Positions 18,444-19,545 of a stretch of 39,075 nucleotides of DNA are shown in pieces (within the stretch, counting starts at the first letter, position 1; every line of letters starts with the position of its first letter). The notes below the pieces were generated by a model that did no database searches, was not told the origin of the DNA, and worked only from the letters and a program-made list of their open reading frames with translations. The stretch spans positions 1 to 39,075 of the forward strand of contig JAUSGG010000089.1 in assembly GCA_030649165.1 (NCBI GenBank). Direction: 5' to 3'. The position numbers and the translations under genes are program-made. This DNA is from Armatimonadota bacterium (GTDB lineage Bacteria > Armatimonadota > UBA5829 > JAUSEB01).

Positions 18444-18725
18444 TCAGGCGGCCTGCGTCGGCCCACCGAACATCTTCTCGACCACAGCCGTCAAGATCGG
18501 GCCGGCATGGTCAATGATCTCGGCGGAGTAGATCCACCCGCCGCTGTCGTGGCCGCGGATCATGATCGCGCGGTTCTCGTAATCCTCCAGTCGGATTTCG
18601 GCGCTCTCCGGCGGGCGAGCCTCCTGCATCCCCATGCCGGTCAACCTCGCGCTGCCGCCGGCTCCTGCGGGCGACAGACGGTGGAATTCGCCGCCCTTCA
18701 CGATACCGAACATTTCCTCGTTCAT
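18444..18725 (-). CDS. Small hypothetical protein (93 aa), no TM segment; possible immunity/accessory protein
   Basis: ATG at 18725 with AAGGAGG 7 nt upstream (the tool-reported first M at 18728 is TTG). It lies downstream of the CHAP gene. Confidence 0.4.
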   Translation of the reverse strand: MNEEMFGIVKGGEFHRLSPAGAGGSARLTGMGMQEARPPESAEIRLEDYENRAIMIRGHDSGGWIYSAEIIDHAGPILTAVVEKMFGGPTQAA

Positions 18726-18789
18726 CAATGCGCCTCCTTATCAAAATGAAGTATCTGACATCAGACGAGAGACAACAGACCCGTAGTCT

Positions 18790-19545
18790 CTACGGACCGG
18801 GCGCGTGCCCGAAGCCCAGCAGCTTGTCTATCCTGCTCAACACGTAGGAAAAGCCCTGCACTCGTGAACTTCTGTTGCCCTCGATGGTATACAGCATCCC
18901 GTCCTTCACCCCGTAAACCAATCCAACGTGGCCTTCCCAGCCGGTGAGCTTACCTCGCCACCAGACTACGATGTCGCCCGGCTGGGGTTCGTAACCGCTC
19001 CCCGGAGCGTGTGCCCAACCGTTATTCTTGAACTGCCCCAACATTTTCCGCGCGCCGACTGTGTAATGGAGAGGCATCCCCGCCGGATTCTGGGAGTAGC
19101 ACCAACTGACGAAGCCGGCGCACCACGAGTTGCCCAAGGGCGCCAGTCCGTGCAGGTACTTTTTCACCCACGGCCCCTGGTTGTTGCCGCCGACCTCACC
19201 GGCCCCGGCGTTCAATTCGCCTATGGCGACACTCAGAGCCGCTCGGCCCCACTTGCTCCCGCCAAGCTGCGCAGGCGGCATCTTCCTGAAATCCACCGCG
19301 CTCGGCGTCTCGATGAAAGGCTTGGGATGCGTGAGGCTCCACCACGTCAACGGCCCTACCTTGCCGTCCACGACCAGCGGCTGGCCATGCTGATCGAGGT
19401 TCTGCGACTGGAACGCCTTGACGGCGCGCTGCGTTTGCGGCCCGAAGACGCCGTCATTGCTGACCGCATAACCTTTTGCTGTCAGCAGTTTCTGCAATTC
19501 CTTTACTTCCGGTCCACGATCTCCCTGCTTTAGCGGTATTGCCAT
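18790..19545 (-). CDS. Peptidoglycan-binding domain + CHAP domain cell-wall hydrolase (amidase/peptidase), no signal peptide
   Basis: Strong RBS AAGGAGG. PG_binding_1-like N-terminus (GDRGPEVKELQKLLTAKGYAVSNDGVFGPQTQRAVKAFQ). CHAP catalytic Cys context NSWCAGFVSWCY and His context GDIVVWW...GHVGLVYG. Confidence 0.8.
   Translation of the reverse strand: MAIPLKQGDRGPEVKELQKLLTAKGYAVSNDGVFGPQTQRAVKAFQSQNLDQHGQPLVVDGKVGPLTWWSLTHPKPFIETPSAVDFRKMPPAQLGGSKWGRAALSVAIGELNAGAGEVGGNNQGPWVKKYLHGLAPLGNSWCAGFVSWCYSQNPAGMPLHYTVGARKMLGQFKNNGWAHAPGSGYEPQPGDIVVWWRGKLTGWEGHVGLVYGVKDGMLYTIEGNRSSRVQGFSYVLSRIDKLLGFGHAPGP

Follow-up and report, generated by a model that had tools for sequence, protein, structure and literature searches.

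A predicted cell-wall hydrolase in the cargo island of an Armatimonadota contractile injection system: an optional accessory with antibacterial payload and release lysin as candidate roles

Positions 1-39,075 of contig JAUSGG010000089.1, from a metagenome-assembled genome of an Armatimonadota bacterium (assembly GCA_030649165.1), form a stretch that we call the window and that carries an operon for an extracellular contractile injection system (eCIS). Within this operon lie two adjacent genes, one for a predicted cell-wall hydrolase of 251 aa and one for a protein of 93 aa, that are the subject of this analysis together with the intergenic gap upstream of the hydrolase. The features of this region, with genes given as open reading frames (ORFs), are as follows.

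18790-19545, minus strand: hydrolase gene, 251 aa, PG_binding_1 plus CHAP (ORF from ATG; Pfam matches)
19342-19518, minus strand: PG_binding_1 domain, residues 10-68 (Pfam E 7.4e-14; DG..G..T-type motifs kept)
18874-19134, minus strand: CHAP catalytic domain, residues 138-224 (Pfam E 1.4e-12)
19122-19120, 18930-18928 and 18882-18880, minus strand: catalytic codons of the hydrolase for Cys142, His206 and Glu222
19554-19558, minus strand: Shine-Dalgarno sequence GGAGG of the hydrolase, 8 nt before the ATG at 19545 (read from the sequence)
18444-18725, minus strand: gene for a 93-aa cytoplasmic protein of a small beta-barrel (OB-like) domain family (ORF from ATG, or 94 aa from a TTG at 18728)
19546-19695, minus strand: intergenic gap of 150 bp preceding the hydrolase gene, in which nothing was detected

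Both domains of the hydrolase score above the Pfam cut-offs, PG_binding_1 (PF01471) with 52.1 bits against a cut-off of 23 and CHAP (PF05257) with 48.4 bits against 26. In an alignment of 28 diverse homologues, the residues C142, H206, E222 and N224 do not vary, and the peptidoglycan-binding motifs, including D60, G61 and G64, are likewise invariant. The protein has no export signal: its peak 19-residue hydropathy is 0.85 and the folded peptidoglycan-binding domain begins at about residue 5. The AlphaFold (AF2) model has a pLDDT of 87.7 overall and of 90 over residues 1-10. The free-standing protein of 28 kDa consists of the two enzyme domains alone, with no attachment domain and no structural fusion, and no named family could be assigned to it, every NCBIfam match falling far under its cut-off. 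These features argue strongly for a wall hydrolase with the two-domain build of phage endolysins and an intact Cys-His-Glu/Asn center, which is apparently active and for which muralytic activity is predicted. Since the protein has no export signal, the enzyme would be kept from the producer's own wall.

Structural and profile searches place the hydrolase among phage lysins. A PDB profile search matched its N-terminal domain to the wall-binding domains of the Gram-negative phage endolysins 7rum, 5nm7 and 3bkh, and Foldseek found the fold of its C-terminal domain to resemble the CHAP domains of LysK (CHAPK, 4csh), LysGH15 (4olk) and Ly7917, with Gsp amidase, a cytoplasmic CHAP enzyme, also among the structural matches. 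The top matches in BFVD are free-standing phage proteins of equal size and the same two-domain build. Most PHROG matches are labeled 'endolysin'; phrog_1259 ('baseplate hub subunit and tail lysozyme') covers both domains, aligning with residues 10-238 at E 2.2e-9. The phage relatives are 27-39% identical to the hydrolase and are located where lysis genes typically sit, and the tight family to which the hydrolase belongs (at least 60% identity) was not found in 2.9 million viral contigs, in which the best match reached 39%.

The eCIS operon is on the minus strand and extends from about 31243 to 6157. Its first part encodes the sheath, the tube, a T4-baseplate-like protein, Pvc16_N, an AAA ATPase and a 79-aa protein, and its middle part CIS_tube (the tube initiator), a LysM-like 91-aa protein, the gpD hub and the gpV spike. 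An insert of four genes follows, in the order DUF4157 protein A, hydrolase, 93-aa gene, DUF4157 protein B, after which the operon continues with a PAAR-position protein, gp25, two Baseplate_J proteins, a 701-aa protein and a DUF6519 fibre-like protein. The hydrolase and the 93-aa gene are thus flanked by cargo-type proteins with an eCIS_core (DUF4157) domain and therefore lie in a cargo island and not among the structural genes. The flanks of the insert and the two cargo-type genes are given below.

21101-21601, minus strand: spike gene (Phage_base_V OB domain, Pfam E 8.2e-29), upstream boundary of the insert, position kept in related loci
19696-21075, minus strand: cargo-type protein A, 459 aa (eCIS_core/DUF4157 at residues 197-273, 20257-20487, Pfam E 7.9e-31)
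16981-18432, minus strand: cargo-type protein B, 483 aa (eCIS_core/DUF4157 at residues 76-151, 17980-18207, Pfam E 4.5e-30)
16507-16881, minus strand: small PAAR-position protein, downstream boundary of the insert (tblastn 42-65% identity, same position in related loci)

Loaded cargo of AlgoCIS consists of a disordered N-terminus, DUF4157 and a variable C-terminus, and its loading requires the disordered N-terminal sequence (bioRxiv 10.64898/2026.05.27.728243); eCIS toxins cluster with DUF4157 genes (PMC8213781, PMC11297309). In protein A the DUF4157 domain is preceded by an N-terminus of 196 aa with low hydrophobicity and 74% disorder-promoting residues, and in protein B by one of 75 aa, likewise of low hydrophobicity, with 71%. 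Both share this build with the loaded AlgoCIS cargo and with many eCIS-associated toxins. The C-terminal domains of the two proteins gave no match to Pfam, NCBIfam or PDB sequences. The domain of protein A (19696-20256, minus strand) is Cys-rich, with 8 Cys in 186 residues, and has no Pfam match. The 332-aa domain of protein B (16981-17976, minus strand) contains a His-rich YNHGGIAL...VHHTEA and, further on, NCNEFVHEVY, both noticed by eye, and to the eye it is reminiscent of permuted NlpC/P60 (YiiX-like) hydrolases. The gene for protein B begins 11 nt past the stop of the 93-aa gene.

No convincing membrane helix was found in any product of the operon, and the intergenic gaps in the insert are all at most 150 bp, which leaves no room for a holin. 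The initial annotation, made from the letters alone, had described a signal-less peptidoglycan-binding and CHAP hydrolase with a strong ribosome-binding site of its own, located inside an eCIS operon with no holin to be seen, and each of these observations holds. It had missed the cargo-type DUF4157 (eCIS_core) identity of the genes on either side.

To see how the hydrolase is distributed among eCIS loci, we relied on an independent sample of 33 loci of at least 6 kb that had been retrieved with the tube-initiator protein, and not the hydrolase, as the anchor. The hydrolase is present in none of the 33 (tblastn and domain hidden Markov model), about 19 of which span the operon from the AAA gene to gp25 and so cover both of its slots within that stretch, and no other free-standing protein with a PG_binding_1 wall-binding domain was found in them. 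The nearest relatives of the operon (tube 72-79% and gpD 61-67% identical) all lack the gene. In four of these relatives, which have no insert (L151, L153, L154 and L160, in our numbering of the compared loci), the PAAR-position and gp25 genes come immediately after the spike gene; in L150 and L164 DUF4157 genes alone occupy the slot between spike and PAAR-position genes, and in L158 DUF4157 genes lie between the AAA gene and the tube initiator. As the closest eCIS relatives of the operon lack the hydrolase, its gene was probably acquired horizontally. The initial annotation had named conservation at this position in all related loci as the mark of a structural baseplate component; absent from 33/33 related loci and found in other slots elsewhere, the hydrolase is not structural. 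These comparisons show it to be an accessory of the eCIS cargo island that is both mobile and optional, and not a building block of the particle.

Searches starting from the hydrolase itself gave 920 homologues, 60-73% identical across many phyla; the best 120 of the 920 are all about 245-277 aa long, 65-73% identical and from very different phyla. The family tree partly tracks taxonomy, and in it the window copy falls together with those of a planctomycete and an alphaproteobacterium. Structural genes of an eCIS lie near the hydrolase in 37 of the 54 genome loci with a full-length copy. Where at least 5 kb could be seen on both sides, 26 loci are eCIS-linked, 1 has DUF4157 genes only and 10 have neither. 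The eCIS-linked copies represent at least eight phylum-level lineages and several gene orders; as a rule they are tightly packed and share the strand of their neighbors. Most of them sit in the slot that the AAA ATPase and its DUF4157 genes bound on one side and the tube initiator on the other, on the same strand and often 24 bp before the tube-initiator gene. The hydrolase adjoins DUF4157 genes in three slots, exemplified by the window, by L015, L029 and L235, and by L236. The closest relative, in L235 (73% identical), occupies the slot between AAA gene and tube initiator and is followed by a Gly-zipper protein and then a DUF4157 gene. Solo copies among housekeeping genes were found in Smithellaceae and in Bryobacterales, in the latter with a syntenic order of valS, hydrolase and MFS gene and ValRS proteins 83-92% identical (L061/L062:7235-12074; L003; L002; L053). 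In a comparison of the window with L005, the hydrolase (73% identical) is more conserved than the tube (55%), the sheath (50%) and the AAA ATPase (33%).

In other loci, membrane proteins lie beside the hydrolase. One of them, 245-320 aa long, has two membrane helices at its N-terminus and a C-terminal domain that is TPR-like, and it adjoins the hydrolase in 13 loci from three lineages (examples are L018:9114-9950, L051:9123-9974, L005:10739-11527, L007:10826-11560 and L211:3573-4241). Its gene lies upstream of the hydrolase in Xanthomonadales, which is the holin-endolysin order, and downstream in an alphaproteobacterium and in a Bacteroidota metagenome-assembled genome. It was found in 1 of the 33 hydrolase-free loci, and its association with the hydrolase has a Fisher p of about 3e-4 (14/38 vs 1/35, a value uncorrected for phylogeny). 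By the positive-inside rule, the basic loop between the helices suggests that the TPR-like domain is periplasmic. The protein could serve in immunity, as a membrane adaptor or as an aid to lysis. Several Rhodanobacter loci hold truncated remnants of the gene, and in other loci four-helix and Gly-zipper proteins take its place, so that the hydrolase has neighbors from at least three unrelated membrane families (two-helix plus TPR, four-helix and Gly-zipper). A search for holins among these proteins gave no match to any PHROG family and only weak Pfam matches, to TPR or 8xMP. The window contains no relative of any of them.

The 93-aa gene has a Shine-Dalgarno sequence of its own (GGAGG at 18737-18733, 7 nt upstream of its ATG at 18725). 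Its product matches 274 cluster representatives at E<=1e-3 in a full HMMER scan, where a word-indexed search had yielded two homologues only, and the gene is therefore real. The family (P0122-P0273, L230 and L231 among the relatives) has no Pfam, NCBIfam or PHROG model. Its domain is about 85 aa long and stand-alone members are about 90-100 aa; other members carry it in tandem or behind Sec, Tat or lipoprotein-like signals (as judged by inspection), and in still others it follows a multi-helix membrane anchor or is joined to an HExxH protease-like domain. The initial annotation had seen no membrane segment in the 93-aa protein, in agreement with a peak hydropathy of 1.04 and the lack of a signal peptide, and had proposed it as an immunity-like partner of the hydrolase. 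Comparison did not support this proposal: among about 54 further loci with a full-length hydrolase gene no relative was found, the copy in the window lacks an export signal, and stand-alone relatives occur in injection-system loci that have no hydrolase. In one of these the order is AAA, a 106-aa ORF, the 93-aa relative and the tube initiator (L231), and in the other the relative lies upstream of Pvc16_N (L230). The two closest relatives are on contigs shorter than 1.2 kb and have neither hydrolase nor eCIS genes as neighbors. By these comparisons, the 93-aa gene would be a separate accessory with an OB-like small domain and no conserved tie to the hydrolase, and its product may possibly serve as an adaptor or inhibitor for the neighboring DUF4157 protein.

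Two roles, as an antibacterial payload and as a release lysin, stay candidates for the hydrolase. We tentatively favor the former, an antibacterial wall-breaching accessory or payload, at a probability of roughly 0.42. The enzyme would arrive at a bacterial target together with the particle or riding on it, and there its N-terminal domain would bind peptidoglycan and its CHAP domain would cut stem peptides or the amidase bond, weakening the wall at the point where the cargo toxins enter. The producer would need no immunity protein, because the enzyme would never reach the producer's periplasm. The patchy presence of the hydrolase is typical of payloads. Two cargo-type fusions, of eCIS_core with PG_binding_1 in L202 (7674-9467) and with LysM in L008 (10772-13198), suggest that peptidoglycan is a recurrent cargo target in this eCIS lineage, and the two-helix TPR-like neighbor seen elsewhere would fit an immunity protein, in support of a target-directed role. 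In published data, PG_binding_1 counts among the 'shell' domains enriched in eCIS (odds ratio 8.5, 8 phyla), and neighbors of DUF4157 toxins annotated 'PG_binding_1,CHAP' are already in the published Dataset EV4. EAT10, a wall hydrolase from an eCIS locus, is 10^4-fold more toxic in the periplasm of E. coli than in the cytoplasm. Of the predicted eCIS toxins, 68 carry peptidoglycan-binding domains (Danov et al. 2024, PMC11297309).

Several observations weigh against this preference for a target-directed enzyme. A disordered N-terminal loading sequence was sought in the model and the alignment of the hydrolase and none was found, and both the presence of the hydrolase in particles and its enzymatic activity are predictions. 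It matches free-standing phage endolysins exactly in size and architecture. Conservation above that of tube and sheath is unusual for an effector, and the variety of unrelated membrane-protein neighbors fits holins better than specific immunity proteins. In L236, the hydrolase lies next to three 3'-terminal DUF4157 genes and is convergent to them. Ten loci with at least 5 kb on each flank show no eCIS gene, and for the solo copies of Bryobacterales the nearest 10 kb hold no eCIS gene, nor does a small gene or an immunity gene adjoin them.

Some of this evidence speaks instead for a release lysin, a possible if less favored role in which the cytoplasmic enzyme degrades the producer's wall once the inner membrane has been opened and thereby frees the particles. 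A signal-less protein of about 250 aa with an N-terminal wall-binding and a C-terminal catalytic domain has the modular build of a Gram-negative phage endolysin, its distant phage relatives lie at the positions of lysis genes, and the lack of a cargo loading sequence, the hydrolase's own transcription unit in L236 and the holin-endolysin order of its membrane-protein neighbors in Xanthomonadales all suit a lysin. Particles of eCIS are thought to be freed by lysis, and Afp has a predicted lysis cassette (PMC12961389), the only one known for an eCIS locus (PMC10598620). The membrane could be opened by the holin-like neighbor in other loci and here by membrane-active cargo or an unlinked holin. 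Against this role, the window has neither a holin nor a spanin, nor the space for one, and the two-helix neighbor elsewhere, with its large TPR-like domain and no PHROG match, is not holin-like. An operon-encoded lysin is also not required for this kind of eCIS, because the hydrolase is missing from 33/33 related loci, none of which has another free-standing protein with its wall-binding domain, and the hydrolase travels with cargo genes, unlike the known lysis cassettes at the operon edge. A variant that needs no holin strikes us as doubtful: the hydrolase would be an extremely conserved 'latent lysin', harmless in the cytoplasm and bursting the cell only upon a breach of the inner membrane, which eCIS cargo or a particle firing inside the cell could cause, with copies either eCIS-linked or solo in many environmental bacteria. 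If true, eCIS loci without a lysis cassette would gain the release step that they lack, and the conservation of the hydrolase above tube and sheath would be explained.

The solo copies raise a further explanation, that the hydrolase is a cell-autonomous enzyme, acting for example in the recycling of wall peptides or in autolysis after non-classical export, and that it lands in a recombination-prone island as a passenger. Stable synteny with valS and an MFS gene, a tree that partly follows taxonomy, a very high, housekeeping-like conservation and the existence of cytoplasmic CHAP enzymes such as Gsp amidase are consistent with this, but linkage to eCIS genes in 37/54 loci from at least eight phylum-level lineages is far above what chance insertion would give, and we consider a passenger unlikely. 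Comparative genomics has already largely refuted the pairing of the hydrolase, as a toxin, with the 93-aa protein as the immunity protein that neutralizes it. The two genes do lie side by side on one strand, each with a strong ribosome-binding site, and many members of the 93-aa family are exported or lipoprotein-like; the window copy, having no export signal, cannot protect the wall compartment, and with its relatives missing beside some 54 other hydrolase genes and present in injection loci that have no hydrolase (L231, L230), such a pair is very improbable. No more credit is due to the hydrolase as a baseplate or spike component with a wall-piercing domain, as in the T4 gp5 lysozyme or the CHAP domain of the phi812 hub. 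Its gene does lie two genes past the hub and spike genes, the alignment to phrog_1259 spans both domains, and the phi812 hub CHAP and tail-associated lysozymes are among its fold matches; yet the related loci go directly from the spike to the PAAR-position and gp25 genes, copies elsewhere sit in other slots and even on the opposite strand, and the protein has nothing to attach it to a particle.

Type VI secretion amidase effectors (Tse1/Tae) pair with periplasmic immunity proteins (Tsi/Tai). The hydrolase resembles these effectors as a signal-less, papain-like Cys-His wall amidase or peptidase for which delivery by a contractile machine is proposed here, and the neighbor with a probable periplasmic domain in other loci could act as its immunity protein. 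It differs in the machine, in its extra wall-binding domain and in having no conserved immunity gene here, and the 93-aa neighbor in the window is cytoplasmic and unrelated to the known immunity families. The CHAP and lysozyme domains of virions (T4 gp5, phi812 hub CHAP 9eum, phrog_1259) include the same two-domain module at the C-terminus of some phage hubs, unlike the free-standing 28-kDa hydrolase, which is dispensable in related loci. The Gram-negative phage endolysins phiKZ gp144 (KZ144, 3bkh), Burkholderia AP3 (5nm7) and LysT84 (7rum), which are the best sequence and structure matches of the N-terminal domain, are likewise signal-less proteins of about 250-270 aa with an N-terminal PG_binding_1 domain; they carry a transglycosylase or muramidase where the hydrolase has CHAP, and no phage, holin or spanin is found here. 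In lysis cassettes, such as the holin, lysin and spanins of R-type pyocins and the endopeptidase, holin and lysozyme upstream of Afp, a wall hydrolase is also encoded with a contractile particle for which release by lysis of the producer is assumed. With their holin and their place at the cluster edge, those cassettes contrast with the holin-free cargo island described here and with the absence of the gene from most related loci.

The closest published counterparts of a payload are the eCIS wall toxins, the peptidoglycan hydrolase EAT10 and the DUF4157-L,D-transpeptidase EAT6 (Geller et al. 2021, PMC8213781). Like the hydrolase, they are encoded in an eCIS operon beside DUF4157 genes, have peptidoglycan as the predicted target and would do harm in the periplasm and none in the cytoplasm. 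The hydrolase differs in being PG_binding_1 plus CHAP without a DUF4157 domain or a disordered N-terminus and in lying mid-operon and not at the 3' end, and its toxicity and loading are predictions. The main text of that paper links a pesticin domain to an eCIS locus of P. luteoviolacea, the species from which EAT10 comes. PG_binding_1 plus CHAP genes beside DUF4157 toxins, wall-hydrolase toxins of eCIS and the lysis cassettes of Afp and pyocins are thus all known, and the present analysis is a modest refinement: it adds that the hydrolase is optional, travels with cargo, has no loading sequence and also exists as a stable solo gene, and that the neighboring 93-aa gene belongs to a separate, uncharacterized domain family. 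If the hydrolase is a payload or wall-breaching helper, this eCIS and many relatives in soil and sediment bacteria would be aimed at other bacteria, and engineered injection systems could draw on the enzyme family as an antibacterial module that is highly conserved and ready for use. Should the hydrolase be a release lysin instead, it would bear on how eCIS particles leave a producer that has no lysis cassette.

The 150-bp gap upstream of the hydrolase was suggested in the initial annotation to hold an internal promoter. The gap exists (19546-19695), but no consensus match of the sigma-70 type lies in it; a scan for sigma-70-like promoters, limited to that type, found 0 in 16000-24500 against 2.3 expected. 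No Rfam family matched the gap, and it folds no better than shuffled sequences (z = +1.71). A candidate terminator hairpin at 18798-18778 was discounted, being one of 7 terminator-like matches against 6.4 expected. We also rejected a foreign composition of the insert, the difference between its GC content (0.54-0.60) and that of the structural genes (0.60-0.66) being too small.

Some further observations concern the neighboring genes. The program-made ORF of 246 aa for the spike (21101-21841, minus strand) overlaps the gpD gene; the true start is likely the ATG at 21601 (MLEILDRV...), 8 nt past the gpD stop, giving a protein of 166 aa. The PAAR-position protein has no Pfam match. A protein of about 80 aa, also without a Pfam match, is encoded directly 3' of the AAA ATPase gene in many related loci (window 23868-24107, minus strand; L001:2104-2355; L006:9705-9965). 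Beyond the fibre end of the operon, at 1082-6098 on the plus strand, lie genes for an SPFH/Band 7 protein (686 aa) and for a protein with VIT and von Willebrand A domains (851 aa), with no link seen to the genes studied here. Directly upstream of the eCIS genes and on the same strand, 32273-33580 (minus) encodes a polysaccharide deacetylase with a hydrophobic segment, which is possibly wall-modifying, and 33881-38290 (minus) a bacterial alpha-2-macroglobulin of 1469 aa.

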